From Botryllus schlosseri (lineage: Eukaryota), in NCBI GenBank assembly GCA_051294905.1, contig CM119372.1, positions 27,592,001 to 27,656,000 of the forward strand: a stretch of DNA of 64,000 bases. Direction: 5' to 3'. Position numbers and translations under genes: made by a program. Shown here piece by piece: positions 9,531 to 62,578 of this stretch (within the stretch, counting starts at the first letter, position 1; the number at the start of each line of letters is the position of its first letter). The notes under the pieces were generated by a model, which did no database searches, was not told the DNA's origin, and was given only the letters and a program-made list of their open reading frames with translations.

Positions 9531-9567
9531 ATCTAGACCGATGCTTTCACCCATTTTTTGGTTAGAG

Positions 9568-14476: not shown

Positions 14477-15360
14477 AAGGGTTACCATATTTCAGCAACC
14501 CAAATTTCGGACACTCTTTAGCGCCCACTAGTGGATTTCAAAATGATTTGTGACGTCACACTAGCAAAACTTTGCTCATGGTTCAGAGGTGGTCACGATC
14601 CGGTTCAGGAGTATGTGGCTGTGTGTTGTGTAACCAGGACCAAAAGCACATGTTTTCAGCCCCCTTCCGCCCAAATAAAGAATGATTTTGAGCCCATGCA
14701 CACTATAGGGTAATCTATGCAACTTGCCGGTGCGCACCACGGAGCTTTATAAAACCCCACATCCAGTGGCTTCCAACATTTTATGGTCGCGACTCCATCT
14801 CCAATTTGAAAATGTTCTGTGGCCCAGATCAAAATTTGACGAGCTGATTACTAAAAGAAGGCAGCACCTTTTCCCAGACTTACTCACGGGCTATTTTGGA
14901 AGCTGATTACGTTCAGCATATTCGCGAACCCCGGAATAAAGACAAGCACCCCCCCCCCCCCGTTTGGAACTATCTTTGAATAAAGAATTTAAACGGCCTT
15001 AACGATCTCTAGGAATATACCGTTCTCCTATAATTGCGATTACAATTAGGCTTATTCCAGTAAAGGAAGGTTGTTTTTATTTATATTTTATTGCAGTTTT
15101 TGCGAAGGTAGTAGTCTCTATATTAAAATCAATAAATGTGATAGTAAATCGCGCGCAGCGCGAAGATAAAATCATGCATCACATGAATATTCCCACCAAA
15201 AATATTGTTTTTATGCTGATTAAAAGAAAAAGTTATGAGTGTTATGTCAAGTCTTCAAAATTCCGGACATTTGGCATATTTTAGAAATTCCTCCCGGACG
15301 CTAGTTTGAACAGTGAAATTCCGGACATGTCCGGGAAATTCCGGACGTATGGCAATCCAA
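14477..15360. mobile_element. hAT MITE family B (AGGGTTRCCA termini, CCGGAC subterminal repeats)
   Basis: Starts AGGGTTACCATATTTCAGCAACCC, ends CCGGACGTATGGCAATCC; homologous to 26857, 37097 and 43538 copies. Confidence 0.75.
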
Positions 15361-15368
15361 CTCAATGA

Positions 15369-22173: not shown

Positions 22174-24223
22174 CAGGGCTGTGGAGTCGGAGTCGGTGGA
22201 GTCGGAGTCGGGGTGATTTTCGCTTGATGGAGTCGGAGTCGTGAAAACTATAATAGCTGGAGTCGGAGTCGGGGTCGGAGTCGGTGGGAAAATACTGACT
22301 GGAGTCGGAGTCGGAGTTTGTGAGAATGACTATGACTTCGACTCCGACTCCGACTCCAACTTCTCTATCATGAAAACATTTGCTTTCAAAGAATTTTCAA
22401 TCGAATTTTTATGTACTACCAATCACCGTTATTATTAACCATACAGACCAGGTGCGGCCAGCCCGTGGCACGCAGGCCAAATTTGGCACACGAGAAGGTT
22501 AAGTGTGGCCTGCGAGGTAATCCTCGAAATTATTTATGACGTCATTTTACAATTGCAAGGCCAACCAAAATTTGATTAACATGACCGCGAAATTTGATGA
22601 TTACTAAAACGGCAGTTCTGACGCATTGACGTATCCAGGGGCCAGCCACATTTATCCCAGATCTTCACATATGACCATATGAAGTAGAATATTTCATAGC
22701 AGATCTATTTGACTTGAAATTTTTCTCGGTACTTCGCATGATTCATTGTCACTAGATTTCTTGCATGCAGTATTTGAGCCCCCTTCTGAAAATTATAAAT
22801 ACATATTATTCACAGAATTGAGTCTAACTATATTCGCAATTATGAGATATGGCTTCGCTTGTGCACTTGCAGCGAGATCGTCGACAAAACATTCGCACAG
22901 AATGATAGAGGCATGTTCACTGATACCGTCGATTTTGCTATGTCTAAACGTCGAATAATCCTGTCCTTGCCAAATGAGCCCAGTGGCATACAGCTGCGAC
23001 CCCCAATGTATGTTTGCGACATATTTATTGATATAGCTATAGCCTAATTCAGTCGTTATCTTGCAAAAAAATTTCACGCTTCGCGTGACCAGGGCCTGAT
23101 TGCGCAGTGCACAGTTGCATGACATATTATTATCAATTTTAGACTTATATAAGTCTTGTTTGCGATGTTACCTAATTCGGTTCGCTCCTATCGACGACTA
23201 AAAAAGGTTATCAACATTCCAGTTGCCCGCGCAATGGTTCGTAAATCTCAGGTGTCCCTTTCGCCGAAACAGTTGCCCACCCCTGATATAGATAAAATTA
23301 GACATTACTTGCAAATTTCAACTCAGTTGCAGAGGGGAAGAAAATCGCAAGATGCGTTTTCGCGATGCAGTCAAAATTGATGCAATTTTTGGAATCATAC
23401 CATGATACTGTGACAGAGAAAATGCATCGGCTGGTTTTGTAAAATTGTAAAAATGATGTAAATATGACCAAATGATGCTTCCCACTTGACAAAATTAAAA
23501 ATATTTGTAGTGTAGCTTAGCTGTTTGGGTCGAACAAATGATTAAGAAAGACTGCAAGTCTCAATTCTTGAATACTTGATTAAGTACATGTAGACTAGAC
23601 ATAGGCTATGGTCTTTGACTACTTAACTAAATTCCCTCTATGACCAATGTCTATTGTTAGTAGTAAGAGTGTTTGTGCTTGTAATCAGGATAGTGTGCTA
23701 TGACAAAATTAGTAAGTTAAATTTCTTTATTAGTTGCTGAGTCATACACAAGAGCTACACTTGGATTTTTTATCTACATTTTTATTATACATGATTGGAT
23801 ATCTGCCATATTTGAATGATTCATACATTTCAGGATATTAGAGAGTCCATGTTATAAAAACTTGACTAAGGAAGGATATTTAGCAAATCTTTATTTCATG
23901 TTAATTGCATAGTGGATAATTCGAGCTGTGCTACAATGAAACAATTTAGCATGCCACATTTAATCATATGTTTGCATATGTTTATTGGTTGCATGATAGT
24001 CATTCAACCGACAATGTGGCATATAATTTTCGAAGTAAATTGGCAATAATGCTGGAGTCGGAGTCGGGAGTCGGAGTCGGAGTCGGTACGTTTAAAGACC
24101 CAGGAGTCGGAGTCGGTACGTTTAAAGACTCAGGAGTCGGAGTCGGAGTCGGTATATTGAAAATGTGTGGAGTCGGAGTCGGAGCCGGAGTTGTTGGTAA
24201 AATTTACCGACTCCACAGCCCTG
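22174..24223. mobile_element. hAT non-autonomous element family G with (GGAGTC)n subterminal arrays
   Basis: TIR CAGGGCTGTGGAGTCGG; perfect TSD CTATAAAT (22166-22173, 24224-24231). Confidence 0.92.
22449..23285. mobile_element. hAT MITE family C nested in G
   Basis: CAGG termini; TSD ATACAGAC/ATATAGAT; reverse-complement homolog at 42658-43513. Confidence 0.8.
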
Positions 24224-25495
24224 CTATAAATGGTAAATAATTGTTATCGAACAGAGTTTTCTGGCAGTCTACACACAATTGTCCTGCAATCCTAATTAAT
24301 AACTCCAGACTCCAAGCCAAAAAACAGTATTTTATAGGTATATATTTTATTTGAAGTCGTAAATCGATTTCCTAATATGTTTGTGGGGGCCGCAAGAAGG
24401 CTAGCTGGGGGCCGCACTTGGGAATCACTGATCTAGCCATATCAAAAGTATTTATATATATATATATATATATATTGTCCTTTATGAGTTACGTGTTATT
24501 GTGATTTAAACAAGAATAGCTAAATTAATCAATCTTTATACATACTGCATGGTATGTGCTGAAATCGGATCTATTTTTTGAACAGGCTCGTGGGCTACCT
24601 GGGCCCGCGGGCACTACGTTTGTGACCCTTGGTGTATAGTAATACATCTGAACAACATCCAGACAAATTACGAATGGGCAATTCTCCCAACCGAGGATGC
24701 AATATGAAGAAATACTATAACTACCTTAACATAATGATTAAAAACATCCCATTCCTTATCTCAAAATAATATGCCACCCCATATCTTTAAGAATGCAGAA
24801 TATACACAGATTAACCATGACGATCGGGAGCTTTTCGAATCCTCGAAGATATTAGTAAATGCTGCATGTTATCCTATTCGCCATTATCGCTCCCACATTC
24901 ATCGCATTCGACTGTTGATTTTTTTATTTCAGTCCGTCATGAATGTTTTCATGTCTATTGTTTAAGAAGTCTGGTCATCATCTACATTTGTAAATTCCAG
25001 ACTATGTAAAGTTGCTATACGTCTCAGTCATTTCCACCCTTGTCACACAGCCGAGTAACTTGTCACTGTGGAGACGATGTAACGACTGTTCTTTAACCAA
25101 TACCAAAGCCCTACTGCCATTGCTTTTATCTCCGTTAAATCAGTGATTTCTTCTTCATTTTACTTTTGATTAACTCCGAGTCTTCCTTCCCACATCCTGA
25201 AACTCCTTTATCCAACCTGCTAAAATGCCCCCTCCAGTAAAGATTTGCATCGTAACGACTTGATATTGGTAAAAGTTAAGAAGCCTAAAAATAGATAGTC
25301 GCAACCCGATTAAGTAATGATTGAAGCAGATGATGTTAATTTACATGACGTGAAATTTATTGGGTACCGGTATCTCGATAAATTCTGCGGAAGCGCTGTG
25401 GGACGGTCAGACTGCTCGTGCTAAACATGGATGGGACCCAATTATTAGTTTTCGAGAATAAACAATAAGAGTTTGTTAACAACACTTGATGCACG

Positions 25496-26454
25496 CAGTG
25501 TTGGGATGACTCGAGTCATGACTTGACTCGAGTCAGACTCGAGTCACCTTTTTTGCATGACTTGACTTGACTCGAGTCACTTTGCTAAAATGACTTGACT
25601 TGACTTGACTCGGCGTATCAGAAATGTGGATTGACTCGTGACTCGGAGCAAAATTCACGAGTCAATTTCAAGTCATCACGTAATCGGTGTCGATAATCAC
25701 TGTTTCTTGGATATGTTCGGACTGTTCGCGAAACGCTAGTGTAACCCGTGAGAGCGACCAATCATTCAATGACCGTGCGTTTCACCGAGACTCGATTGTT
25801 CTCTCACAAATAAATGACCGCAAACGAAGGGATCGAAGCTTATAGCTTAAGTCGTCGTAACTTTATTAGTAAAGTAATAGAATAACAAAATATCTACTGC
25901 TGTTCTCTGTTCTTACCTTAACCAAAACTCTTGTTTTATTGAAATTGAAGTTGAATATGGTTTACATAGTCCTCAACCATTGGCGCAGGCTCGAATGGTA
26001 GCCTGTGTCATATCTATTTGTAAATGGGTAATGTATTGCATCTTATCAATTCGTTTATCTATTCTCTATCTTGGCTGGTAACTGTAAACTGAGGCTACGC
26101 AATTACGTATATGTGAGCGATACAGCGCCTGCTTGTGTGGATATTTAACTCTATATTCTTTCATCGGTTTAGAATCAATGACCACTCAAACTGTATTTCA
26201 GACAGCTAGCAAATTGCAATGACGTAATCATGCCTCATACATACTTCGAAAGGGCAACTTGACTTGAAATGTGACTTGACTCGTGACTTGACTTGACTTG
26301 ACTCGACTTGACTCGAGTCACCTCCAAAAATCGAGCGACTTGACTTGACTCGAGTCACCTTTGAAAATTGATTGACTTGACTTGACTCGAGTCAAAATGT
26401 GCAATGACTCGAAATGACTCGTGACTCGAAGGTAGTGACCTGATCCCAACACTG
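25496..26454. mobile_element. hAT MITE family J with GACTT/GACTCGAGTC subterminal repeats
   Basis: TIR CAGTGTTGGGAT; perfect TSD GATGCACG (25488-25495, 26455-26462). Confidence 0.92.
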
Positions 26455-36001: not shown

Positions 36002-38899
36002 TTAATGACTGCCTTGGGCTTGGTGTGAGTTAGCCAACTGAGCTATGTCAGGCTCAATACTAGATAGACATAGTCTCAGATCACCTCTTCTAGATATTTG
36101 CAATCTATTTCTTTGCTTCGTTAGTAGATGCAATACCGAACTGAAGCCTTTCTCTACCAGATATGACGACGGAAATGCTAACAGCAATAGCTTGGTTATA
36201 TCCCAAAGACGAGGATATTCAACTTGTTTCCTAGGCCAGAAATCTTCATACCCAATCTGCAGAAACAACAATTCACTCTCAAAGTCATTTTTCAAGTCAA
36301 TAAGTTCTTCAGCTACACTAGCATCACAATTGTTTACTTCAGATTTGAATGGATTTATTACCCATTCTGGTATCTTTAGCTCTTTGAGATCTATAAATCT
36401 GATCATCAAATCTTCTTTTAGTGATTGCAAATGACACGAATAGCAGTCTAAGTCAGGCTTTGTCACATGTGAATCGTCGATTTGGTTTTCTTGCAAGGCT
36501 TTCAATTTAGGAAATTGAGTCAAATCATGCCTCAGTAAAGAAGCCCGGTAAAAATCCAATTTGCTAATGAATGCCATAACAATTCCCTTTGCTTTGATGA
36601 GACACATCTTGATACCTTGCAATTTCCTGTTGACCTCATTTAACTTGCTGAAAATTTCGGACAAATACGCGACGTCTGCCCTTCTGCTCTTCAAATCGGA
36701 GCTAGATGTCTGATCCAACATTTTAAGGTTGATGAAATCGATAACAGAATCGAAAAGGTCATAGAAGCGTTCGAGACATCTGCCTTTTGAGAGCCACTGG
36801 ACTTCTGTATGAAGCAAGAGCCGCTCAAATTCTTCGTCATTGTCATGACGAAGTTTGCGAAATATGCGGTCATTCAATGAATGAGCTTTGATCGTGTTCA
36901 CGGCTCTAACAACAACCTGCAGGGTCTCATGTAATCTGTCGCTGATGTGCTTTGCTGCTAGATGTTGTCTGTGAATGACGCAGTGTATCGTGAATATGTC
37001 AGGAACTTCTTTTTTCAAATGTGCAATGAATCCTCGATGCCGTCCAACCATTGATGGTGCGCCATCTGTTGCATACGCAATGATATTCGACATGGCCAGG
37101 GTTACCATATTTCAGCAACCCAAATTCGGGACACTCTTTAGCGCCCACTATTCGATTTCAAATTGGATTGTGACGTCACACTAGCAACGCTTTGCTCATA
37201 GATCTGAGGTTGTCACGGTCCGGCTCAGGAGTATGTGGCAGTGTGTTGTGGAACCGGGACCAAAACCACATGTTTTAGCCCCCTCCCGCCCAAATAAACA
37301 ATGATTTTGAGCCCACACTATGGGGTAATCGATGCAGCTTCTGGGCGACTCCGCCTCCAATTTGAAAATGTTCCTTGGCCCAGATCAGAATTTCAAGGGC
37401 GTAGTACAGAGTTTCCGCAATGGATCCACCACAGTTCTATTGTTCAGATTTAAGACATGATATAATATATAGAATATATAAATTGGTAGGAATTTAGTGA
37501 ACAAGACATTCTGGTATTTTAGCCAAAGGATCTTCATCCGTAAACTGTCATAGGCGGGCTTGACCCTACCGACAAGAATTTAAAGCATGGGTGTTTTGGG
37601 TAGATATTTTGTAACATAAAATCTGGGAGCATATAGGATAAAGAGTTCTTATGGGAAGATGAAGTATAAATAAAGGTAAAGTCATAATAAGGAAATAAGA
37701 TTAACAAAATAATTTATAGTATAAGCAGAGGGTAATAATATAGTAGCATGAATATGACTCAGTCCAAAGCAACTCTACCATGGCATCTCACGTCGTCAGG
37801 GGTGGTAAAGATGTAGGTAGGGCGTATTAGCCTCTCCTTTTCTGTAGCAAATACCGGTAATGCTTACGGCAGAGGGATTATAACAATTTTGAGTGAGTTT
37901 AAATAAATGAACTTGAATGGGGGGTGAATTTCAACGAAAATGGTTGATTTCAAATCGTATTTTAACACACTACTGATTCGAAATCAGACAAAAGCAATAC
38001 ATTTTTGAAAAGAACTAGTTTCATACTTTAGGATTCTGCAATAAAAAAAAAAAATTGGAAAATTTTGTTAGTTCAGCTGTACCTTACGGCCTTAAAAAGC
38101 GGGACGTTTGGCTGACTGGTCGGGACGCCGGGACAAGACGTTAAAAAGCGGGACTATCCCGCCTAAAACGGGACGTATGGTAAGCCTACATGGGGATATG
38201 TTTCTGCTTGAAAAAAAAAATTCGACTGTCTTATAAATCGTCGAGCCTTTGGTGTCGACCTTTGATTGCTCCGCAAACAGAAACTCTTCTACAATTTGAA
38301 AAGTGGAGCTAACATAGCGCACATAGCCCATAAGCAAAGCTTGGTTATCGCGTAGCGTTGTCTCGTCAAGTTGCAGGGAAAATTGCGTTGTTTTGAGTTC
38401 ACTACAGAGTTTATTTTCAACGTCATTTGCCATTTCGTCTATTCGGGAAGACACAATGCTATTACTCAACGGAATTGAACTTGTAACATATTTTTGATAG
38501 CTCATCATGGTACTGATGATTTCTTTTAACAGCTGGTATAATGAGACGCTCACCAATGGTGTGCGATAATCCACATTGTGCAATGAGCTTTCATATTTTG
38601 TAAGATGCAATAAGTCCTTGCTCAACTTCCTTTCTGGATGACTTTATTAGACACCCAACAGTAAGACGTTTTTCAAGTTTTGCTTTCAGAATCCGAAAAT
38701 ATCCGATATCCTTGTTGGCTTTTTCTGGACGCCTAGTCATCAAATGATCCATCATTCTGGAAGGCTTCATACCTTCATTCGTAAACGTTTTCTCGCATAT
38801 TAAACACATCGGTAATTGTTCATTGTCCACAGATGGAATTACACCATATTTTAGGTATTCCTTTGCGTATTGACGGCATTTCCGCTTTTGAATACTCAT
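36002..38899 (-). pseudogene. hAT transposase pseudogene interrupted by a family-B MITE and frameshifted
   Basis: PMCLICEK...MKPS, LQLDETT, ATDGAPSM, HCVIHRQHL, WLSKG, FPSSYLVEKGFS, QAQGSH. Confidence 0.9.
37097..38188. mobile_element. Family-B MITE inserted in the transposase
   Basis: CAGGGTTACCAT...ATGGTAAGCCTA; CATGG on both flanks; transposase RNI-PM-SNII is joined across it. Confidence 0.82.
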
Positions 38900-45990: not shown

Positions 45991-48299
45991 ATATCACTTC
46001 CAAATCATCACCCTTCTTTTTCACTGCGATACTGTATTATCAAGCCTGTATACACGTATATGATCGTGTATTACATTATATTACGGATCATAGTGGCTCC
46101 ATTATGGCAACACCTTTATTCGCAAGCAATGACTGTTGTTCGATTGTATACATTTATAAACCGCTAAATCAGTAGTTCTAGCGACGATATAAGTTGGCAT
46201 ATATGTATCGGCTCCCATTGTGTTATTCGCAATAAATCGGAACGTAGCCCAGCGTATGCGCTGTGAGGAAAACAAAATATTCAACCGTAAACGCTACCGT
46301 CGGTGGAATTGGGTTCATTATAATAGAATGATTATCATTAAATCAATATCATTTGAGGTTCTCTGAGGCAGATCTTTTGAATCATAATTATTAACGCAGT
46401 GGCCTCTGGATTCTTTCTGAACTGTGATATTTTCCGAAAAATCTACATAAAAGGGTTTCGCATTGGCGCTTACGCTTATATCTCGATGATTAATTTTTGG
46501 TTCATATTGCCATAACATTTTGAAATCAGTGGGCACTTTTTTACATTCTCGGAATTCGGTTCCAATGTCAACGACTTACTCCTATTGGTCACTAGAGTGA
46601 AACCGTGACACTGCCGGCGGGTGGTCATGATGAGACCTATAAACATGTTCGATATTTGTTGGTTTGAATATAAGGGAATATGTAATTGAATTATTTCTTA
46701 CTAAAAATCTGAGCATTCGTTAAAATTGTGTTGGATAATTCAAACTTTTAGTTTTCACAATTTCTTCGAACACCGGATTTAATCGTTTGGCGTGACGGAT
46801 TGTATTTGTATATTCTCAGGTGAATGAAGGTCGGTAGTGTAAGTCACCAATTTAATGTCTGCGCGCATATAGCAACCGATATATAATTTTGTGTCGCTTT
46901 GTTCGTTGTTAGCTGAACATGGTGTCTTGTGCAGAAACAGCCTGAGAAACACGTACTGCACTAAATGTTGGACAACCAGCATGTGTGCAAAGTATTGACC
47001 GTATTTATGACCCAGTGTTTCGGGTTCGGAGCAAATTACAAAAGTCATATCGAGTCGTGGAACATGCAGGCTGGAGTCGGGTACATCACTCGAATTTTCG
47101 GTGACTCGAGTCAAGTCAAGTCATATAAATTCAAGTCAAGCCAAGTCGAATTTACGAAGTACGAGGCGTGATGAATATAATAAAAGCGCTGGTTACACTG
47201 ATTGTGCAAGACATTGCTTTTTGTAAGATGATTGATTTGCGACTTGGTGTGATTCGATTATTGAATATATAGTTATAACGAACAGTGGCTGCATTATGAC
47301 TGCAAACGATGAAAATAAAAGTCAATGGAGTAATGTGAGGAGCGACGCCGTCATGTCACCAATGGGTACAGGTAGGACCATAACTGCCACACCACAAACC
47401 CCGCAGTTGGGGGGTCGAGCTCGAAGCGGGGCCAAAAGTATTTCGTGAATGAACATAAATAGAGAGTCTTTTTTAAAATTTATTTTCAATTTGTTCAGAA
47501 CTTTTTCGCGCTTTGCGCGATAGAATGTTACCACGAACTTGATTATTGTGTACCCTTCCTCAGGAACAAATACATATGACTTATAGAAATGAGCATTTCA
47601 GCGTCGGCTATTACCGCGCTATGACGCACGAAGACATATGAAGTTTTAGGCCATATATGGGACTCCGAGAAGTGTGCAAGAACGATCGGCAGCGAGAAAA
47701 CCCTTGCCCTAACAGGACTGCACTTATGCTGAACGAAAACTTCGATATATTTATATAAATATGTATATGTTTAATTAAATAATTTAAGTATCCACGGACG
47801 CTAAATGGCTGACGCCGGATGTTCCTGTCCTGGCAATCTGAACCCCTCAAGACAAATCACACCTCGTAGGATAAAATATTTGCCAATGAAGAAATAGCAA
47901 TTTGAAATCGTATGCGTCTTTTAGTTCAGTACGTTAGGACGATTTCAATATCTTTTGACATAACAGATAGGAGGTCACGAAATAACATCATGTAACGAAG
48001 TCATTGTACCAACGGGTCAGCCCGAAGCGGCTTAGTTATTATTTACGGACCACAATTTTTCAAGAAACCTTTATCAGCTCTATACTGGTAAATTTGATTA
48101 CGTGAGCAGAGAGGAGATAAAATGATAATATGCTATATGCTATATGATATTGACCGACTCAATAAACAATTATGAAAACTTTCTCGTTTCGCGCGGCTAG
48201 GTATTACAGCTAGTCCCACTTAATAGTACAACAGATGTCGCTGATAAGCAGCGGTAAAAACTCAAGATACAGCCTGATGGGGTGTGTGTGAATCCCCCC

Positions 48300-48479
48300 T
48301 GTACTGAAAACGTACTACGACCTCAACGCAAGTTTGGTTTTTATTAACTAATGAAGACTCGAGCAACTAAACGTGGTACATACAACACTCAATATATATG
48401 GTAGGGTAAGATGCGGGTAATCAACACAAATGCGGGTAATCAACACAATTGGTGAGATCACGAGGAAATAATCACCACA
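48300..48479 (-). repeat. 3' LTR
   Basis: Identical by eye to 52408-52587; internal 19-bp duplication ATGCGGGTAATCAACACAA. Confidence 0.95.
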
Positions 48480-48559
48480 ATCACCCCTCCTTAAAAATAA
48501 GACTACACTATAAATAAATCGTTACGAATGACAAATTTTCAAGCTACAAACAAAACAAT

Positions 48560-51500
48560 TTAGGCCCAATCTCCGTATCTATCAGGAGGCCGACGGATGC
48601 GAGTAGAACGACGGAGAGAAACTGCAGGCATCGGACTGCCATCGACGTCGTCTGGGCGATCTACGTGAGAATCGGTGTTCGTGCGCTCCTTCTCAACTGA
48701 CCGAATCGATTCTTCAGCCAGTTCAGGTTCGCGTTCCAGAATCTCCACATCTTCCTCAGTTTCGGACTTTGAACGCAAGGATTCTGTCCGTTCACGAGGA
48801 GGACACGGAGCAAGGTCTTTCACAGATACCGTACTTTCACGACCGTCTCGGCGCTTTACAAGAGCATACTTTGGATTTACTTCAATGAGTTCGACATATT
48901 CGCAGAGAGGATCGCTTTTATTACGGACGAATTTCCTCAGGAGCGCATCTTTGCTGGATATCATCCAATCTGGAATAGATTGACCGTGCATCGATCGACG
49001 ACAAAATGAAAAGAAACGTTCATGTGGAGTGACTCCGGTGGCAGTACATAATAATGACCTTATAGAATGTAAGGCGTCTGCTAACACCGCTTCCCAAGCG
49101 CTCTCTGGCAATTCGTGAGATGCGAGTTAAAGTTTAATTGACCTCCATATCGTCTGATTAGCCCGCTCACATTGACTGTTACCCGTAGGGTGATAGGGAG
49201 TGGTCCGACTGGTCGCAACACCCTTTCGGATCAAAAACTCGTGGACATCTTTAGAGAGAAAAGACTTTCCCCTGTCACTATGTACATAGCCAGGTAATCC
49301 AAACAAAGCGAACAATGACGATAAACAGCTAATAACAGTCTGCGACGTCATATCGGCGCATGGGAAGACGAAAGGAAAACGACTGAATTCGTCGATTACA
49401 ACAAGCAAGTAAGGTCGTTTTCCAGCGACTGGTCCTTTGAAATCTATACTCACGCGATCCCATGCCCTAATAGCTTTGACGAGAGTATAAGCTTCTGGTC
49501 TGAAAAATCGGGGTTTAATTTCAGCACATTCTGGGCAATCTCGGCACTCCTTCTTTATTTCTTCTGTGGAAAAAGGTAAACATTTAGCTCGAACGAAGTG
49601 CATCATCCGTCGCACTCCTGGGTGCGACAGTGTTACGTGAATATTCCGTAAGCTCGATCCTGTAAAGGCACAAACTCTCGACATCGAATCGGCGGCTACG
49701 TTGTCTTTACCTGGTCGATGTTTGATGCGGTATTTGAATGCACTTAATTCGAGTTTCCACAACGACAATTTTGTATTCTTTATCTTACTGCGATGAGATT
49801 TCGCGAATATGAAGGACAGTGCATTTTGATCCGTGATCAAGGTAAACGGTTTTATATGAAGTAGATAGCCCCACTTACGTACTGCTTCAATAATGGCAGC
49901 TGCTTCTTTTTCTACGGCAGCGTACCTCTTCTCATGCTTGTTCAGCGTTCTGTGCGCAAACGCTACCGGCCTCCCTCTTTGGCTGAGTATTGCAGCAATG
50001 GCGAATTCAGAAGCATCACACTCGATGGTAAATTCTTCATCCTCCAGAATACAGCCGAGACTTGACCGTAGGAGATCGTTCTTCAATTGCCGAAATGCCA
50101 TCAAAGCTTCGCTGCTCAAGGGAAATGTCAAATCGTTGTTACATAGCGGACCAATTTTACCGGAAAAATTCGATATCCACTTCGAGTAGTAAGAAAACAT
50201 TCCCAGACAACGTTTCAAACTTTTTCCGTCAGAAGGCGCAGGTAAGTCAACTAGAGGCTTCAGATGAGCAGGATCAGGCTTTATGGAGTCGTGAGCGACG
50301 AGGTGTCCCAAAATGGACAATTCCTTAACACAGAACTTGCACTTGTTAACATTCAGAGTTAGATCACAAACCTTCGCGGCGGTTATAAAAGCTTGCAAAC
50401 GTTCATCATGCTGTTGCTTTGTATCGCCATAAATGGTAATGTCGTCTAGATAAGCGACAGTGCCTTTCAGTCCGTTGCCTTCTATAAATCTGTCAATAAA
50501 GCGTTGAAACGCAGCAACTCCATTAGTGACTCCAAAGGGAAGCCTGCAAAATTGATATAGACGACCACAAGCTTCGAATGCAGTAAAGGGCTTATCATTA
50601 CTTCCAAGAGGTACCTGATGGTAAGCGGACTTCAAATCTATCGCACTGTACCATTTACCTCGAGCTACTTCATTTACGACGTTTTCAATCTTCGGAAGCG
50701 GATATGCATCTAGCGGAGTATAGCGGTTGATTGTTTGAGAGTAATCAACGACCAATCTCATTTTGTGTCTGGAGTCCTTTACCACCAATACCTGAGCTCT
50801 CCACGGAGACGAGGAAGGTTCAATCACTCCAGAATCCAGAAGTTTTGATACTTCGTCACGTATAAACACCTTGTCATCATTACTGTAGTTTCTGGACTTG
50901 GTAGCCAAGGGCTGCACGTTCCCATCTACAAACCGAAAAATACACGGCGTCTCATCCACTTTAGCAGCTATCACATTACAGGCATCAGTTGCTGCTGCAG
51001 CTGTATCAGCGCTCCCGTCAACGCTTTCATTTGTGACCATCCCATCGCCTCCGCCACTTGCTCTGCCGCTGTTGATGGTTAGATCTCCATCGCCACTGAA
51101 TTCAAAAACAACTCTTTTATGCTTTTCGAAGAAATTATGGCCTAGAACCAAATCGCAACAAAGATCGTCAAGAACGCCGAACCGAACAGACTTATATATT
51201 CGATTACCCAAATCCAGAGGAACACAAACGAAACCGTTGACTTCGGCGGCGAATTGTCCTGAAGCGAGTTTGATCATGGTTTGCAGTCCTCTGCCTTTCA
51301 ACCCAAGCGAAGCGGCTACTTTAGAATCCATGTAATTTTCCCAAGCTCCGGAATCCAGTAAGGCACGCAACTTTGCTTTACGAATGTAAGCGGGCACAGT
51401 AGTGTTGGACAGCGAGGAACAGCCATTAGATGCAAGAATGGACGAGATTCGAGGTTCAGTGACAGACGCAGCTGTTTTCACTACTTGGGATCGACACATT

Positions 51501-52393
51501 TTACTGAAATGCCCTTGCTTTTGGCACTTGAAACACCTCACGTACCGAGCAGGGCATAGGGCACGGTCTAAAACGTGACTGTTACCACAAAATATACACT
51601 TCGACGATTGACGACGGACTACCGCGACTTCACTTACGCCATCATTCGAAGATGTACAATCCGTGCGAGCCACGCTATTCACATTAGCGATCTCGCTCGC
51701 ATCATTATTCGCAGCAATGTGTGCGGATGCGCAATCTATGTGAGCCATGCTACTCACAGTAGCGGTGGTCTCGTAGGAACGAGAGAAGCACTCGGCTTTC
51801 TCCATAGTGTCTGCAACTTGAAGTGCTTTATCCAAAGATAGTTCCTCGTGTTCCAGAAGACGAAGACGTATATTTGCTGATCGCAATCCAGAAATGAATG
51901 CATCGCGTACAGATTCTTCCAAATGCGTTTCTGCGGTAACCGACTTGAACTCGCATTTCTTGCCCAATGTTAACAATTCTTGTGCAAATTCAGATACGCT
52001 CTCACTCGTCATTTGTTTTCTGGCCGAGAGGTTATGACGAGCGTAAATAGTATTGTTCTTCTTGACATACATCTTCTTCAATTTCTCCATTGCTTCAAGG
52101 TAGTTCTCCTTATCTTCGATATACGAAAATATCTCAGCAGACATGTATCCACCCATAATAGCGATCTTATTGATAGTGGAAAGTGCGGGTGAATCCGACC
52201 CACTCCCAGACGATGCGGAGCTGGCATTTCTTGATTGCTCAACGGCTTCAATATAGCTCTCCAACATACGCTTCCAATGGTTGAAAACCTTCTGCGAATC
52301 CACTGCACGTGGTAACACTTCCAACACTGGTACGCGGATGAGCTTCTCGTTGTAAGCAGCCATGTCTTTTACGGAAAAGACGACAACGTTCAT
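48560..52393 (-). pseudogene. gag-pol polyprotein with a single in-frame TAA (49127-49129) in integrase
   Basis: CFKCQKQGHFSKMC knuckle, LLDSGA protease, YLDD RT, CDASEFA RNase H, HPG...CPEC, SIDFKG, HSDRG, GNSQCER; reads SIKL*LASHELPESAWE in frame. Confidence 0.92.
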
Positions 52394-52407
52394 TTAGTTA
52401 ATAAAAT

Positions 52408-52587
52408 TGTACTGAAAACGTACTACGACCTCAACGCAAGTTTGGTTTTTATTAACTAATGAAGACTCGAGCAACTAAACGTGGTACATACAACACTCAA
52501 TATATATGGTAGGGTAAGATGCGGGTAATCAACACAAATGCGGGTAATCAACACAATTGGTGAGATCACGAGGAAATAATCACCACA
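52408..52587 (-). repeat. 5' LTR with TATA-like box (about 52500-52507) and AATAAA (52448-52453)
   Basis: Upstream of the gag ATG on the minus strand; identical to 3' LTR. Confidence 0.93.
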
Positions 52588-55260
52588 CCCCCCATAATTT
52601 TGGTTTATCACTGTGTAGGGAGGGGGGAGCCCTACGTTTTTTTTTGGAGGGGGCTGACGATGTGCAGCCTCGGTCCTTGGAACAGGTTTTAGTCTCGGCT
52701 ATTCCTAGTTTCTATGCAGTGGATGTGTATCTAGGCTCGTTATCGCCGATCCTGCTGTAATGCAACGTCGCATAAGACCCGAGGAAGAGAGAATTGAACT
52801 GAACTGAATCTTATTTGCAGAGACTGACTGACTGAATAGTGGGCGTGCACTGGCATGAAATGTCGTCTGCAAAACCAGAGCTACAACTTTGAACTTGTCT
52901 ACTTTGAAAACGCTCAGTCTTCCTTGTATCAAAATATCGACTGCAACAGGCGTCGTATCGTCTTTTTGCGGACCCATATGACAAATATTTGGGAATTTGT
53001 ACAGTTGTAGAACTATAGTAAGGCTGCCACTAGCCTACGATAGCGTAAACTCTAGTCACTTCGCTTGTGGTCAATCTATTTCTGACACAATATTGGAAGC
53101 TCAGTAAGACCAGTCTTGGCAATCGTTGAATGACTATCCTTGATTTCAAAGGCAATCGCCACGTGTCAAGTACATATATAATATATACATACACACACAG
53201 TAGCCTACATTGTACAGCGAGTTTCGGGAACCTATGGGCCGCAAGCCGCATATAGGTATTCTTTTATGTTGGGCATATCGCTCTTTGAGAAATAGAAGTT
53301 GTAAGTTATCGAGAAACACGATTTTCATGAATCACAATTCCCTGTAATCTTGTGTATGATACTTTCCAACAGAGATATAATTCGCGTCGGTCTTTGAACG
53401 GCACACATTGCATTCGATTTCATATTGATGCGACGTTTGATTACTAAATAATGACTATCTATTCGACCTTTTCCGTTATGCAAAATTAGTAGGAATCGAC
53501 CGAATATTTACAGCACTGCGTTAGGGAAAATGAGAGCATACCTGTCAACTAATAGAAGTCTGCAAATTGATAAGTTGATTGAGACACTTTCTTAAAATGG
53601 AATGTATTTATTATTCCGTAAAACTGAGATCTGCTATCACGGCAAACCAGCCGTCGGATTGCTGAAACATGTCGTATAGATTTATATTTCACGCTTTGAA
53701 CATCGGTGACACATCTCATCGGACTGATCCAACACATAGCTTCTCAAAGATACATGTTCCGGTCGGAATGTGTCATAGTGTGAGATATCGGTACTTTCCA
53801 AATTTGAATTTGCTTTGCTCGTCAAAGCAATCAATAAAATCGAGATCACCGTTAAATTACGAAGTATTGGGGTTTTAGTTGAAAGGGGATTTGTGATAGT
53901 CAGGTATCGGCATGTAATGATCACACGCGACACAACGTAGTTCGAGTAATGGTCGGGTCAATGTGGCTGTTTCATCATCACGTCTGTTTTCAATATAGAA
54001 CATATAATGATCACGACAAATCCCATTATTTAGTGATCTTAGATATCGTGACACCAATGTATCACGAGCTTCGAAATTTAATTGTCATCGTTGTATTGCT
54101 CCCCGCAAATAGAAAATATAGGATCAATACGACTTCTTTGGCGACCCCTATTATAGAGGTACAGCGATTTAGTCGACAGCAATTAATTATTGACTTGAAA
54201 TATAACTTTACGATTCAAGTCATGTGTCAATCCACATTTCTGAAACTATCAGCCAAATCAAATGAAGTCATTTTGCAAAGTAAGAGTAAAGTCATTTGAA
54301 AAAGTTCACTTGAGTCAGCTCAACACTGATATAATCTCGCCAACGCATTTCCTGTCCCGAATTCTCAGTGCATATCATCTACTCAATAATTTGGAGTCAT
54401 CGCAAAGGATTTTAATAACTTGACTACGATATTGTAATTCGCGACTAAATTTATATATTAAGCAGCAATCCCATTTATTTTGAATATGAAGCCTCATTTT
54501 AGCTGTCCTGTCATGATTATAACAGGTGAATTTTCAATCTTACAGTGCAGTGCTTTTCAAACTTTTTGAGCACCATTCGGACTTGGTTCGCGAAATAAAT
54601 TTCATCCACGCAAACCTACCTAAAATTATTTTACAAAAAAGGAAAATGGATACGGAACAATATATTGTCCCGATGCGAAACAGGCAGGCCACTGCTTCAG
54701 GCCTTCAAGTGTCATATTAAAAATACAACTATTTTCCCTCATTTCGATTTCAACTACAGTCAACCAAAACCCTTTTTGGTCGAATAACTTCTGGATTTTG
54801 TACAAGAGCTTCTAGTCTAGTGCTTGGATGGTTAGATCTTTATGAGAATCTTCCAGTCCTCCTATCCAAAATAAAACGTATTTTCTGCAAGTTAAAATGT
54901 TTCCTGGAAGCGCAATCGCTTTTATGAGTGTGACACAAAGGTCTCAGAGGCTTAAGTTCATCGAAGGGGTGCAAAACCCAGATGACTTAGAAAATAACCT
55001 CCAAAACTATTTAGAAGAGTATGCAAATTATAGAGCTTTCTGCTTTATGATATGCTGCTCCAATTTAGGTTCTGTTTTTATTTCAATTTTCCATGTTCTG
55101 TCCCACGAGTAAATGAGAAGAACAAGGAAAGCGACGTTGTCGTGTGTTCGGCTCTCGCTCTATCTATCTTGAAAGTTCATAACAGTTCGATAACTCTAAC
55201 GCAGTGGTTCTTGAATTTTTTAGACTGCGACCTAAATCTGATTCATAGTAAAGCCTACAT

Positions 55261-56950
55261 CAGTGGATCTCAACCGTTGATCCGGGGACCGGTGCCAGTC
55301 CGCGACGACATTCCTGCCGGTCCGCCAGTTATATTAAAATTGTATAGGCCTACCTGAATTTCAAAATGCAATACTTCGAAGGCTTGTCCATTGATAAAAA
55401 CCAATAAAGCTTCAATTGGTAACCTAATTTATAACTTCGTGAGGTAACATTATAGGTCTGGAAACATGTTCGATTTGACTTGAAGTTTCACGACGTGTCA
55501 TTTGACGACAGGCGAGTGAAGTGCGAGCTGACTCGCTAATTCGCTTAGTGTGGGCGATCATTCGTTTTCGATTCATTCATTCTATGGAGGACTGTAACTG
55601 GGGCATTCCAAACCCCAATTCGAAAGGGGCCAAGCTTGAAGTGAGCATAAAATTGTTTTCCGAATGAATCAATATGAATATGAATATGAATATGAATAAG
55701 TCATAGAGTATTTTTTTTAACTTTGTCCAACATTTCTCAATTCATTTTCAATCCATGCGCGATTTAGTGACAATAAATGTCTTTCTCAGTTGGCTTCCTT
55801 TTTCAAGAAATAGGGATGAGTTATAGAAATAAGCATTTCGGCGTCAGCCATTACCGCGCCACGACGCACCAACCAATAATGAAAGTTCAGGCTAAGATGG
55901 CCGAAAACTTCGATATATTTATGTCTAATTGTCCATATTCACCTAGATGGCTGGAGCCGAGTCTAGCTGTATTGGCAGTCTGTATACCACACTGGACAAA
56001 CGCCATCACACCAAGAAAAGTCATTTGCCCGTGAAGAAATGCCAACTCGGAATCGTGTGCGGCTTTTAGTTTAGTAGGCTACGCTTGAGCGATTTTAATA
56101 TCTATCCACCATATAAAAGAGAGTAGGTCATGAAATAATGATATGCAACGATGTAATTATTTCAACAGGCTCACTCGAATATACCTAATTATTTTCAAGC
56201 GCTCTCAATTTTCCAATACGACACATCACTCAACTCTACCGAAAGTTTAAAGCAATATATACCCAATTACCAATATTACCAATATTTTTGACTGATTCAG
56301 TCATGAATGATCAAAAATCTTCGCTAGCGGAGCGACTAGGCTACATAAACTCTCTGCTTACGCTGAGTACAATGAATATGCTCACAATACCGGTGAAAAC
56401 ATCCATCTAACTGTGAGGTCTGAGGGAGAAGCCCCCTCCCTGTGGAGGCCCAAGACCAACGTTTTGGGGTGGTCTGACGAAGTGCTTTTTCGGCCCGGAT
56501 TTTGTACATGGCCGGTATAGCTGTTGTCAGGTGTTTTCTTGCGGCGCATTGTATTCGTTGTATCAAGAGTAGCCTACGTCTGGTGGTAGGGGGCAATGAG
56601 CTTGGTGGCACAATAAGGTTATTGGTTGGACCCCGAAACGCTTCTTCTCTCAATATTGTAAAATAGAATAATATTATTCGAGTGCGCGTGGTCGGTTAAA
56701 CCCATGTCCTTTGGCGAGAGAGCAAACTACATGGTAATTTTACCTAGATTCAGCAGACGCACTACCGTAAAACCTCATGGATGCTATCATGAACATATTA
56801 TCGCTCCAAAACCCTCCCTTAGCGACATATACTTACAATTACCGGTTGCATACTTTACATTTTGCGACGCTTTCAATTTTTGTTCACCGGGCTCCAAATA
56901 CTTTTTTAAAATTTTATCGGTTCGCAAGGTGAAAAGGTTGGGAACCACTG
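55261..56950. mobile_element. hAT MITE containing a degenerate family-A copy
   Basis: CAGTGGATCTCAACC / GGTTGGGAACCACTG; TSD GCCTACAT/GTATACAT. Confidence 0.7.
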
Positions 56951-59438
56951 GTATACATGACATTTTGAGACCCAAGCCCAACATATTAAAAAGACTGCAT
57001 TTCGAAGATTACGATAGTATCCTACTGCACGGCACAGTTCTTCGAAAGATGTCTGACATCTGGGATATTAAATTTGGGTTAATTAAGGTTCGTCTGTGCG
57101 TTGCATTTGTACTACTGTCTGCTCCGATTGCGAGGACGGGACTATCACTGCATGGTACCGACTGCCGACTTTTTCGATGACCAAGCATATCAACGAAAGT
57201 TTTTGCCGACCGGCGACGGTTATTTTTCACCGTGGTTTTCTGCCGTCGATCGCTTTGGCACCGTATTTTCCCAGCGGTATATTGCCCACAACTTCATGTC
57301 TTCATGTTTCCCAAATAAGAAGGCGTTGGCCACGAAATGAATATATCTGAAAGGCTCGCACCCGCACGTTGCACACCCCACAACAAAAGCATTCAAAAAT
57401 TTATTCGACTATGATTTCAAGATGAGCTAGCCGGATAGAACTTATGATTAATCCATATCAATTTGTGTAATACAAACTACAAAGGTTAGCACATTTTTAT
57501 TACTAAGCCACATTTTCTGCGTATATCCTTATGGGTTACTGTACCCAACTATTCAAAGGATATAGCGCGAAGAAATTCTTTTGTGAGAAATTCAACAAAC
57601 ATTCCATACATATTACAGATTGCTCGTTTGCCGTTGTGACCCGAAATTATACCCTTTGCGACCATACTGTGGGAATCATTAAACTGGAGAAATTTGCGTG
57701 AGAGACAGTAATGGTTGCATTTATCATTATCTTTACGCTTCGTGCTAATCGAACCGTTGACAAGAGGTAGGGACCCAGTGCAGCACGTGAATTTCCTATT
57801 AGGATTATTTGAATTATTTCACGTTAAAAAAGTAACAATTATTTAGGATTTTCATCCGCACTGCAATATTTGCCATCCGCACAAGTGCGTTCCATCCCAC
57901 GGACTGAATAGCACCGATCTATACTATCTGATTTACTTACTAGCAGAGCTGGATACTATCGAAATCGACACAATCATCGTCGCGGTTACCATGAGTACGG
58001 TAAAATTTGCCATCCTGTCGTGCATTCCGCCGATTTTTCTTCTGGGTTAAAAATTACTAAGCACTGAATGGTGCAAAATAAGTAAAAGTCAGAGTAGGTT
58101 CAAGAGTTCAAGAATTGTTTGACCATGTATATTAAGTGCGGGGGCTTAGCCTCTGAATAACGTTCATGTTAATATATAACAATGGTTTACCGACATCCGA
58201 CAGATCGACCGAAATAAATGACGAACACGAGACATTGTATTCGGAGCCACGATAACGATGAATTCAATTGCTGAATGAACAATTAAAAGGTTAACTTCGA
58301 GTGATTATACAAACTTCTTAAAACAATGTAAAAACTTCGATCTGATTTAAAATGAATATACTTATTCACTACAGGTAGAGAAATGCATGTCTGTATTTAA
58401 AAATATAAATAGCTAGGGATAGTGATGATACAGATTATTATACATCGATAAACGAATTTTTAATTCATGGCGTATTAATGGTTGTTATTAATTGGTCAAT
58501 AATAATTATAGTGATTTGGACGAAATACACCATACCAATCTTTCAGGGGCAGTGTGAGACAGTGTTAGGTTTGTCTGCCTTATAAGTACAATGACTTGCC
58601 AATAAAGTAACCTTCGAAAATCAAAATAAAACTATCCTTTTCATCACTGTATACTTACTAGAAAATACACAGGTATACTATCACATTTAACACAGTCACT
58701 AGTGTCTACAATTGCCCTTTGTTATATATACTGAATAATATAAATTACTCTGTAGAACCAAGCCTTAAGGTCACTGCAACAACACATGAATGTTCATTTT
58801 CAGATTTCGTCGCGGCGAGTATACTAGGTCCAGCCTATATTAACACTGTTCGATGAGATTTAACCCGGACCTATCAGCTGAATTTGTTCTCTCTAGTAGT
58901 ATATTCATCTAAGTTCTTGAATTTCCTGAGTTTGTTTGCGTTGTAGTCCGTGGCACACAATACGTTAACAGGTGATAAGTCCCAATGAAAACCTTTAACG
59001 ATACTAATAATATTGATTGAGCATGATAATATCACAATGGCGATATGAATAGTAGTGTCGTCAAGGAAGTCCTGGTGCATCACGTGAGGTATACTCAATC
59101 ATATGACGTACTTTACATGACCTGGAAAATATCATTGATAGACTTTTAATATACAAGTAAAAATGCTTCCGCAAATGACATAAACGATATAAGTCAGGGT
59201 ATGCATTGTGAAACCTATGGTCTGCCGAGACATATTCGGAACCGGGAAGTAGTGCTAAGATTCAATGCAATATAGGGCACCGAGTCTGCTTTCTAACACT
59301 AGAACTACAGGAACTTCAAACTACCTAAACCTACCTTAAGGCTTTTTGGCGCATGTTGAATTTTCTTCAATTAAATTCATTCAACGGAGCTAAAAATCAG
59401 CACAAATCTAAACAAACGGCATCAGAAACCATTGTTTA

Positions 59439-60289
59439 TTGAGCTCACAGCTTTACGGGTCGCATTGCGTACGCGATTCTTTTACCTTCGCTGATGAGAT
59501 GCGTCGCTCACAGCTATCCGCGCGCGATAATTTCCTATGCTCATTCGACATAAAGAGCCTTTTCACCAACGTGCCACTAAATGAGACGTTGAATATTTGC
59601 GCTGATGCTCTATATAACGGTAAGCTAATACCCCCTCTTTTCTCGAGAGCTACCTTCATCGAATTGATGAGAAACGCTGTGTGTTCTGTTGAATTTAGTT
59701 TCAACATAATCATGTTCCGGCAGGTTGACGGTTTAGCAATGGGGTCACCATTGGGTCCTATCCTAGCCAATATATTTGTAGGATTTCATGAAGGTAAGCT
59801 CTTCTCTTCTTGTAGTAAACCGCCCTTATCATACCATCGCTATGTCGATGACACGTTCGTGATCTTCAATAATGAATCTGACTGTGATAGTTTCCTAGAA
59901 AATTTGAACAAATTACATCCAGCATTGCAATTCACGTCGGAAAAAGAAATCAATAACCGGCTGGCATTCCTTGACGTTCTTGTGGAGAAACGGGATGGCC
60001 AATTCCTTACCTCCGTTTATAGGAAGCCCACGTTTTCGGGTCATTACCTTCGATGGAGCTCTTTCAGTCCAAAAAGTCGTAAAATCAATTTAATCGGCAG
60101 CTTGGTTCACCGGGCGTTGGTGATTTGTTCCGAGGTCAAATTGAATAGTGAACTTGATTACATCCGTAAAATTTTCATTGACAACGGATACCCTGAGTAT
60201 GTCATCAAGCGGACAATAAATAATAAGTTAAGTCATCGGAATGATACCAAACCAAATGAAACCCCCGAAGAAGTCTTTCGTGAAAATAG
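59439..60289 (+). pseudogene. Penelope-like RT, 5' segment
   Basis: Penelope-type RT motifs; frame runs to ...EEVFRENR at the LINE junction. Confidence 0.9.
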
Positions 60290-62040
60290 AGAGAGAGAGA
60301 GAGACTTTATTTTCATCGAACCAAAATACATAACAAACGGCAGTGATGGTGGTACAGAAAATATGCGTGCACAGTATTCGGTATTAGATAGGAATGATCT
60401 ATAAGACCGTGAAGGTCATCTAGTCTGATCACACCAGCATCAAACATGTACACTTGACTCTGAACAGTCTGGCTGTAAAGAAATGTTTAGTTAAAGGAAA
60501 ATAGAAAAAAAATTAAACAATGGTAGCAAATGATCAATGAAGCAATGTCTGGGCGAGGTAGGGCAACAGTGTTAGTGTAACGACAAGAGGTGATCAAGTA
60601 GGGCTTTTTTGAATCTATTATAAGGCAATTCACGGATATGTGGTGGTAATGCATTCCAGATGATAGGTCCCGAGTAGTCGATAGATCTCTTAGTTAGGTT
60701 GCTATTGGGTGGGGGTAAGTAGATGTTTCCTTTAGACGAGGATCTCGTGTAATGGGAACGGACATGTTTAGCAGGTATGAAAAAGTCATCAAACACAGGA
60801 GGCAGACTATTGGAAAAATATTTGTGAACAACTTTTGATACTTCGAAGCGATATAGCTCATCAACTCGCAAAATTCGATGCTTACGGTAGTAAGGCGATA
60901 AATTGGTATGTAAAGGTACAGATGAGATCAGCCGTATCGCACGGTTTTGCAGGGTTCGAATTCTGCACAAAAATGTTGTGCATGCATTTCCCCATACTAC
61001 GATTCCATATTGCAGATGAGAGTGGAAAAGAGAGAAGTAGATGGTTCGTAGCACTGATCTGGAAACCAAAGATTGGAGACGGGTCATTATTCCCACACAC
61101 CGAGCTAGTTTTGATATTGTGCATTCAATATGCTGCTTCCAAGACAATTTGGAATCAATGGTGACGCCGAGATATTTTGCTGAGTCACATATGGAGATTT
61201 GTTTATGATTGATGTTCACAGTGAAATTATGACTGGCATTATTTAGAACGAGCATCTCGGTCTTATCTGCATTCAAACTTAGTTTGTTTGCTTGGAGCCA
61301 TCTCGACACTTTTGGGAGTTCCATATTCACAGATGCATGCAAACCATCGACAGTGTTGGAGGTTATGAAGAGGTGAGTATCATCAGCAAATAGTGTTGTC
61401 CGGAATAAAGATGCATTAACAATGTCGTTAATATAAATGAGGAAAAAAGTCGGTCCAAGGACAGAGCCTTGTGGCACTCCACAAGTTATATCTCTGGTAG
61501 TCGTTCTTAATGACCCCAGTTTAACAAATTGTTTGCGGTTTGCCAGGTAGCTTTCAAGTAGAGTTGCTGCAATACCCCTGATTCCATAGTGTTCTAGCTT
61601 GTATCTTAAGATTCTGTGGTTAACTGTGTCGAAAGCTTTGCGGAGATCGATAAAAATGCTGCAGCCACTTTCTTTTTGCTTGATGGTTTTGTAAAAGTCC
61701 GTTACAATTGATAGTATTGCATGGTTGGTGTTGTGGTTGGATCTGAATCCATGCTGAGTCGGAGACAGTACGGCATTCAATTCAAAAAAGTTCTTTAGTC
61801 GGCAGTCAATCAGTTTCTCAAAAACCGTGGCAAGATTTGGCAAAACAGATATTGGTCGGTAGTTAGAAATTAGCTTTTTACAGCCTTTCTTAAACACTGC
61901 TGGCATTACTCTGGCAGTTTTCAGTGCATCTGGGAAAATGCCTAGACGTATCGACTCATTAAATAAAATGCATATAACATCACCAATAATATTAAAGACT
62001 AGCTTCAGAAAGTGAGTTGGGATGAGATCGGGTCCTACTG
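60290..62040 (-). mobile_element. 5'-truncated L2/CR1-type LINE with open RT frame (60572-62040) and (CT)n tail
   Basis: VGPDLIP, NYRPISVL, QHGFR, DLRKAFDTV, GVPQGSVLGP, LFADD, YLGV; 3' end AATAAAG(TC)n on minus; no TSD. Confidence 0.92.
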
Positions 62041-62578
62041 GGATGTGTACATTCATCTACCTTGGATTGGCCCGGTTTCTTATCGATTTGAGAAACAGAT
62101 CACTTCAGCAGTCCATCGCTGTTATCCAGCGGTGAAAACCAATGTTGTTTTTACCACGATACCAATGTTTCCTGCAGTCCGAAAGGACGTTCTCCCGGCT
62201 TTACAACAAAGTAACGTCATTTATGAATTCAAGTGCCACTGCGATTGTCGGTACGTAGGGAGAACTTCCAAACGGTTGCAGGACCGAATTAAAGAACACA
62301 TCCCACCGTCTGTCAAATCATATATCTCGAAATCGCAGCATAACAATCCGCTTGTTCTAGAACATAACCAGGCCATGAGTCAAAAATCTTCTATTGGCAA
62401 ACATTTACTAGAAAATCATACGTGTGCTGCTAACTACCACGAGGACATGTTCTATGTATTGGCTAAGGGTCGCAATTTATTTCATTTGTCTGTTCTTGAG
62501 TCCACCATCATCATTATGAGTAAACCTAGTTTATGCCAACAGAAAGAATTTGTGTATCATTTGAAAATCGCGCATTAA
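62041..62578 (+). pseudogene. Penelope-like linker plus GIY-YIG endonuclease, 3' segment
   Basis: DVYIHLPWIG, VIYEFKC-CDC-YVGRT, IGKHL, LES...KPSLCQQ. Confidence 0.9.

Follow-up and report, generated by a model that had tools for sequence, protein, structure and literature searches.

Self-priming of reverse transcription has been placed in Tf1/sushi elements, in Tcn1 and in TAR Copia elements (PMC6317226, bioRxiv 2022.12.06.519325; these and the other sources cited here are represented by excerpts). In Tf1, the first 11 nt pair with the PBS (primer-binding site), and RNase H cuts between nucleotides 11 and 12 (PMC7175516), and about half of the Tf1 cDNA keeps a single-stranded copy of the PBS at its 3' end (PMC11042837). 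Tf1 and Tf2 of Schizosaccharomyces pombe, Tj1, Tosmo1-3, Tcn1 and sushi-ichi are described as having no tRNA PBS and instead a PBS that pairs with a segment of the LTR (PMC7175516, PMC4600332, PMC6317226). The element analysed here resembles them in both respects, and resembles the Tf1/sushi elements further in an 11-nt unit and in a second helix adjoining the predicted cut (bioRxiv 2022.12.06.519325). Tf1/sushi elements are, in the excerpted descriptions, chromoviruses with a GPY/F domain, usually a chromodomain, and zero or one CCHC array, whereas the lineage studied here has two knuckles and neither domain. A PBS complementary to the element's own LTR, as found here, has also been predicted for the plant Copia elements TAR, Houba and Osr-1 and for Tcn1 (PMC6317226), but these belong to another superfamily or clade, with plant hosts. 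In that source self-primers were predicted from at least 10 bp of pairing at 0-5 bp after the LTR, and the same kind of test was applied here. Among invertebrate non-chromovirus Gypsy elements, CsRN1 has LTRs that begin with TGTGGYG, as do those of the present element (PMC3601003), but it is described with one array and GPY/F, whereas the present element has two knuckles and no GPY/F. Saci2/lennie also belong to the invertebrate non-chromovirus Gypsy elements, and lennie is reported to have a tRNA-Leu PBS and 4-bp target-site duplications (TSDs) (excerpt of PMC4558846).

The element and its primer-binding site

The window is the whole stretch of Botryllus schlosseri DNA that was analysed (64,000 nucleotides; contig CM119372.1, assembly GCA_051294905.1). 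Its minus strand carries a 4,288-bp (4.3-kb) Ty3/Gypsy LTR retrotransposon, and the self-complementary site lies at the 5' end of this element (Table 1). The assignment to Ty3/Gypsy rests on the TG...CA LTRs, the TSD, the polypurine tract and the domain order PR-RT-RH-IN. The gag-pol frame is interrupted once, by an in-frame stop at 49127-49129, and it has no chromodomain and no GPY/F. The insertion is recent, because the LTR pair is identical and is flanked by a G-run target duplication. A 19-bp tandem duplication in U3 (window 52519-52556) is single in some copies of the family and doubled in others.

Other features were observed in the same window. A 1020-aa open frame (4571-7633, plus strand) with endonuclease and RT domains corresponds to a LINE-type ORF2, and further RT fragments lie at 59412-60404 (plus strand) and 60572-62056 (minus strand). 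A 369-aa stop-to-stop frame (36002-37111, minus strand) had no Pfam match. Many dispersed or inverted repeat families and GGAGTC and GACTT tandem tracts, probably non-autonomous transposons, occupy 8200-16700, 22200-26400, 47500-48130 and 55800-56500.

Table 1. Positions of the element's features in the window
Feature	Position	Strand	Remarks
5' LTR	52408..52587	-	180 bp, TG...CA, identical to 3' LTR
3' LTR	48300..48479	-	180 bp; no PBS after it
TSD GGGGG, upstream copy	52588..52592	-	both flanks G runs; 5 bp by analogy with relatives
TSD GGGGG, downstream copy	48295..48299	-	flank also a G run
Polypurine tract	48480..48492	-	precedes 3' LTR
Single gag-pol frame	48560..52363	-	two CCHC-type knuckles, protease, RT, RNase H, integrase
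One-base spacer between LTR CA and PBS	52407	-	A
Self-complementary PBS	52389..52406	-	core 52406-52396; perfect to 52394; extended to 52389
LTR arm of duplex	52447..52463	-	13 bp perfect; 17 bp with one bulge
Predicted 11-nt self-primer AGTTAATAAAA	52447..52457	-	pairing observed; start 52457 and cut 52447/52446 predicted
AATAAA, probable poly(A) signal	52448..52453	-	inside LTR arm; putative function
Short helix just after predicted cut	52428..52446	-	ACC 52446-52444 with GGT 52430-52428; predicted fold
TATA-like box (from 52506) and alternative start 52476	52476..52506	-	not at fixed distance in other families

The first-pass annotation had proposed that the 5' LTR is followed, in place of TGG, by a PBS complementary to its own LTR, and our analysis confirmed this. 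The sequence ATTTTATTAACTAAATGAA (52407-52389, minus strand) lies directly after the 5' LTR (52587-52408) and has no TGG there, and TTTTATTAACTAA (52406-52394), which follows the spacer A, is the exact complement of LTR positions 52459-52447 over 13 bp. In the 17-bp helix (LTR arm 52463-52447) the single bulged base sits on the PBS side. Most sibling copies have one extra T in the arm, which gives 14 bp of pairing; in L002 and L003 it gives 18 bp. Among 23 copies of the window's family, 6 have a PBS core with uncompensated changes, which are tentatively read as damage after insertion. Two further proposals also stood: AATAAA (52453-52448) lies within the stem in the window copy, and the hairpin can form locally at the 5' LTR alone, because the stem needs a PBS after the LTR and the 3' LTR has none. 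The inclusion of the first gag ATG in the duplex did not hold for the family. Position 52393 starts an ATG, in frame, in the window copy, and across the 23 gag-bearing family copies it reads ATG in 6, ACG in 16 and ACA in 1, while it is the ATG at 52363 that is conserved as the gag start, and this one lies beyond the duplex. An ATG in the stem of so few copies is therefore not part of the design.

Pairing across related families

Relatives were collected as 24 elements from the same genome (copy searches used a host assembly of 495 Mb) and 77 loci from metagenome and MAG contigs, which gave 102 loci including the window. A usable gag start was present in 55 loci and absent in 47, and 54 of the 55 formed 29 groups at 85% RT identity. 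The LTR end was set by alignment of the 5' and 3' LTRs alone in 23 groups, the other 6 being without an LTR pair. A set of 25 families was then defined by merging near-identical groups and adding five families with inferred LTR ends, each family represented by one copy of our choice; L094/L095 were left out because no LTR or PBS was found upstream. Arms in the 25-family set were located by a pairing search, and the independent test is the 23-family set defined by LTR alignment. RT-RNase H identity of the related families to the window element ranged from 42 to 70%. Among the collected loci, L119-L127 are eukaryotic Gypsy elements, some with both LTRs, in contigs of genomes labelled bacterial, likely through host contamination. 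At L114:3786-8200 a partial match is enclosed by a different, identical 183-bp LTR pair, and the PBS region there starts with TTCGCTCC and is not of the self-complementary type.

The results showed that the LTR paired with its own PBS over at least 10 bp in 21 of the 23 families with independently defined LTR ends (10-19 bp, median 14), whereas a foreign LTR reached this length in only 22 of 506 cross-family pairs (median 6). The two misses were L049, whose 3' LTR match is truncated and whose siblings pair over 12 bp, and L092, in which 16 bp are split by one mismatch. Covariation, which the first-pass annotation had named as a check, is thus found throughout the lineage. The 25 families contain 20 different 11-mers, 24 of the families pair perfectly over this core, and wherever an arm departs from that of the window element (64 positions in total) the PBS has the matching base. 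A 1-nt spacer precedes the PBS in 24 of 25 families and a 2-nt spacer in L129; this register was a condition of the search in the 25-family set, and it recurs without that condition in the 102-locus and 23-family analyses. L129 (G000:C2:1299200-1304100), the family nearest to the Ciona proteins, has a very different arm that ends in AAAGTAG and no GCC after it, and still pairs over 13 bp. In a third family the paired length varies between copies (16, 19 or 20 bp), which fits either repeated rewriting or decay beyond the core.

These counts bear on the simplest rival, a chance match in AT-rich sequence. The stem is AU-rich, which accounts for the modest z-scores of whole-region folding (-0.6 to -2.2 for four 5' fragments), and both features would suit a fortuitous match. 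However, when the window LTR was dinucleotide-shuffled 2000 times, 13 bp of PBS-anchored pairing was never reached (best shuffle 11), and together with the contrast between own and cross-family pairs this refutes chance, to which we attach a negligible probability.

Diversity of the PBS also weighs on priming by a host tRNA half or another small RNA, with the LTR match incidental. Some Copia groups are known to be primed by tRNA halves at sites that lack TGG (PMC6317226, in excerpt), and the host tRNA set was screened in part (63 candidates scored, 20 loci of four isotypes compared). In those 20 host loci, however, the best match was 8 nt and lay outside the PBS core. A host primer of this kind is also hard to reconcile with the 20 PBS 11-mers, each of which tracks its own LTR, or with seven related families within one genome that have five different PBS cores. 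Whereas tRNA-primed Gypsy elements have a PBS that begins with TGG and matches a tRNA 3' end, none of the 25 families has TGG within 8 nt of the LTR end, and no primer site other than the self-complementary PBS was found in them. We consider such a host primer extremely unlikely. Closely packed tRNA-like genes, at intervals of about 160-350 bp, form an array at G000:C3:34488000-34508100, and the examined members were called tRNA-Lys(TTT).

The position of AATAAA raises another possibility, namely that the hairpin mainly hides the poly(A) signal of the 5' LTR while another, unrecognised primer is used. Retroviruses are known to have masking hairpins at their 5' LTRs, formation of the stem depends on a PBS after the LTR, and AATAAA lies in the stem in 11 of 25 families and ATTAAA in 6 more. 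On the other hand, 8 of 25 families have retained a stem that contains neither hexamer, and in 5 of 25 AATAAA lies downstream in U5, outside the stem. For masking, the register at the LTR end need not be fixed and AG need not stand at -11 (see below), the families offer no other primer site, and the two aberrant insertions described below are not predicted by it. As the main role of the hairpin masking is therefore very unlikely, and the earlier suggestion that the stem blocks premature polyadenylation is unsupported as a conserved purpose; even as a side benefit of the stem, we rate it as rather improbable. The overlap of AATAAA with the primer would be explained more simply if a short R must hold both primer and signal. 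The predicted primer of this lineage often carries a poly(A) hexamer.

Start site, primer length and aberrant insertions

Counted back from the duplex end that is nearest the LTR end, positions -11/-10 are AG in 19 of 25 families, and elsewhere between -16 and -8 no offset has AG in any family. G is present at -10 in 23 of 25 families, T replaces A at -11 in 6 of 25, and GCC or ACC follows the arm in most families. Read as an initiator-like YAGT, with its A as +1, this AG implies a primer of 11 nt, as long as that of Tf1. The excerpt of PMC3601003 gives TCAKTY as an initiator. The first-pass annotation had suggested a start at 52457, which would give exactly 11 nt, while noting that TATA spacing favours 52476. 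The AG at -11 speaks for the former across the lineage, but in the window element the TATA spacing still favours 52476, because the only TATA box of the family (TATATAT from 52506) lies 49 nt before 52457 and 30 nt before 52476. TATA-like words occur in 5 of 25 families, at no fixed distance from the arm, and the idea of a TATA box at a fixed distance was dropped, as was a DPE-like GGTCG at +28 to +32 from 52457, which is at that position in 1 of 25 families. In four runs of raw RNA reads, of which 3-12% each was searched, 41 reads all fell within the LTR, with none over the PBS or gag and no pile of starts or ends. On the sequence patterns, we lean towards a main primer of 11 nt.

The duplex often extends further upstream than this. 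Pairing upstream of -11 averaged 3.25 bp for own pairs compared to 0.70 bp across families (25-family set), and of the 24 families whose core pairs perfectly, 23 showed it; a strict 11-nt primer alone leaves it unexplained. The structure was also compared with the Tf1 'pretzel', which the excerpted accounts describe as three duplexes. The central duplex is present in our lineage, and the helix right after the predicted cut exceeded shuffles in 18-19 of 25 families, a modest enrichment. The third duplex, between post-PBS sequence and U5, was at chance level (mean 4.16 vs 4.33), as judged by a simple longest-run count that may miss short helices.

Two aberrant insertions carry a record of how the PBS position is filled. 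The first (L022, G000:C7:25311103-25311437, about 25,311,100-25,311,440) is a palindromic 336-bp insertion with the 5-bp TSD GATAT. It consists of one LTR of the window's family, the spacer A, and the complement of the arm and of all U3 up to the LTR start. Its junction has five T, as expected from the five A in the LTR, whereas none of the 23 normal 5' ends has more than four. The second (L152/L164, G000:C3:192862-195676) is an internally deleted copy of a sister family with the 5-bp TSD CTCAG. Over 28 nt its PBS is complementary to its own LTR, compared to 16 in the reference copy; after this the sequence jumps, at weak microhomology, to a point about 1.3 kb inside the element. Such a product is expected from the copying of an over-long primer, because the unpaired tail cannot anneal and transfers wrongly, and the misfired transfer would place productive starts within the paired stretch. 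Among 12 copies with odd PBS ends there were one such long-primer fossil (L152), four ordinary 5' ends (intact stems of 13-20 bp) and seven that were neither. As read from their sequences, both insertions show that the PBS position was written from LTR sequence during replication, in keeping with self-priming. They show use of the pairing and not that RNA was the primer, because a fold-back of plus-strand DNA would give the same products.

Both the upstream pairing and L022 bear on the source of the primer, which could be the 3' LTR copy of the arm (the 3' end either of that RNA itself or of its partner) in place of the capped 5' end. RNA of the 3' LTR holds the bases that pair upstream of -11 in 23 of 24 perfect-core families, and L022 copies all U3 to the LTR start, as a 3' LTR template would supply. 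However, a 3' LTR primer gives no reason for AG at exactly -11, and cutting the 3' R would remove the acceptor for first-strand transfer on that RNA. In addition, L022 was the only palindrome among 40 scored candidates of the window's family, and none was found among 40 each of four other families. A primer from the 3' LTR is accordingly judged highly improbable.

We conclude that minus-strand DNA synthesis of the window element is very probably primed by its own RNA in a Tf1-like manner. The tRNA-independent priming proposed in the first-pass annotation is well supported by the lineage-wide covariation, the fixed register, the AG at -11 and the two fossil insertions. The scheme builds on the observed pairing, register and covariation and takes its start site, cut and priming step from Tf1. 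The usual transcription start would be 52457, the A of the initiator-like YAGT at 11 nt from the end of the duplex, although some transcripts would begin further upstream, and the 5' end of the RNA would fold onto the PBS. RNase H of the RT would then cut after the A-run (52447/52446), at the junction with the short U5 helix, and RT would extend from the resulting 3'-OH, which lies one base away from the end of the LTR. Plus-strand synthesis would copy the attached primer, so that the PBS is re-templated from the LTR in each cycle, which would explain both the covariation and, through occasional longer primers, the 1-8 bp of extra pairing upstream of -11. In the 3' LTR the same bases would probably act as poly(A) signal, so that strand transfer would have a short R overlap to use.

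Lineage placement and implications

Close protein relatives of the element occur in Ciona, Mytilus, Armadillidium, butterflies, moths, a psyllid, a cockroach, Trichuris and Trichinella. In a quick RT-RNase H tree of 56 rows these named-host proteins interleave with the PBS-tested loci; for those hosts the comparison covered proteins. The RT clade of the window element also takes in one Mytilus protein and two proteins of Ciona intestinalis, the latter two of which may represent Cigr-1. An unrooted tree of 24 rows placed the lineage on one side of a long branch (100/100, length 1.49), apart from six plant or algal chromodomain elements (100/99); with no root, no Tf1 or sushi sequence and long branches, this tree falls short of proof that the origin was separate. 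With the sampled chromodomain-bearing elements the lineage shares 28-34% RT-RNase H identity. No chromodomain or SH3_Tf2-1 family was found in P0002 or in any of 27 aligned lineage proteins, and no GPY/F in the 9 lineage proteins checked. The nearest PDB match was the Ty3 RT, and a homologue fell into generic retrotransposon clusters in Atlas. Single-protein scans of metagenome and viral contigs gave no match, and the viral contigs were also blank with an alignment query.

In the excerpt of PMC2774666 (supplement 3), Cigr-1 is assigned to Branch 2 (non-chromovirus), with two CCHC arrays, an ILG motif, integrase after RNase H, and no GPY/F, chromodomain or env. We found two CCHC arrays, an ILG-type protease motif, integrase after RNase H and no GPY/F, chromodomain or env. 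The protease motif reads VLG in the window element and ILG in the Ciona proteins, the first knuckle has variant spacing, and the TANG flap pattern was not found in the window element, which has LASG there. The same marker code is given for Circe (Osvaldo clade), and identity with the Cigr-1 clade is inferred from the marker description. Cigr-1 comes from Ciona intestinalis, and its clade has also been reported in molluscs (PMC6238403, in excerpt). On these sequence features, the element most likely belongs to a non-chromovirus invertebrate Ty3/Gypsy lineage, the Cigr-1 clade. The first-pass annotation had likened it to the Tf1/sushi type; this stood for the self-complementary PBS and the lack of a tRNA site, but not for the chromodomain and GPY/F, both missing, or for the third duplex. 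The element would thus work like Tf1 and is probably of the Cigr-1 clade, and it should not be filed under Tf1/sushi, because its marker set matches Cigr-1 and not Tf1/sushi-ichi.

The mechanism itself is known, and its use in this Gypsy lineage is probably new: no report of self-priming in a Cigr-1-type lineage was found in the literature searched, with the original Cigr-1 description, the primary Tf1 papers and Repbase lying outside the search. A broader reading, which we hold at slightly less than even confidence, is that an ancient Gypsy lineage outside the chromoviruses, spread across the invertebrates (with relatives in tunicates, molluscs, crustaceans, insects and nematodes), independently reached Tf1-like 11-nt self-priming. 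One short sequence would then be initiator and primer at once and in many cases the poly(A) signal too; the PBS would be rewritten from the LTR in each cycle, as the fossils suggest.

If an annotation pipeline insists on a tRNA PBS, such elements will be missed or mis-assigned; the fossil insertions open a route to inferring primer length from genome sequence alone. The tRNA PBS is a target of 3' tRNA fragments (PMC7472051, in excerpt); self-primed elements would lack this site and may thereby escape. Self-priming has been treated as a mark of Tf1/sushi chromoviruses, and an ancestral self-priming precursor has been raised before (PMC3601003, in excerpt). A second widespread Gypsy lineage with this mode of priming bears on whether it is ancestral or arose repeatedly and, if the reading is true, would also bear on the 11-nt primer as a constraint of RT/RNase H.
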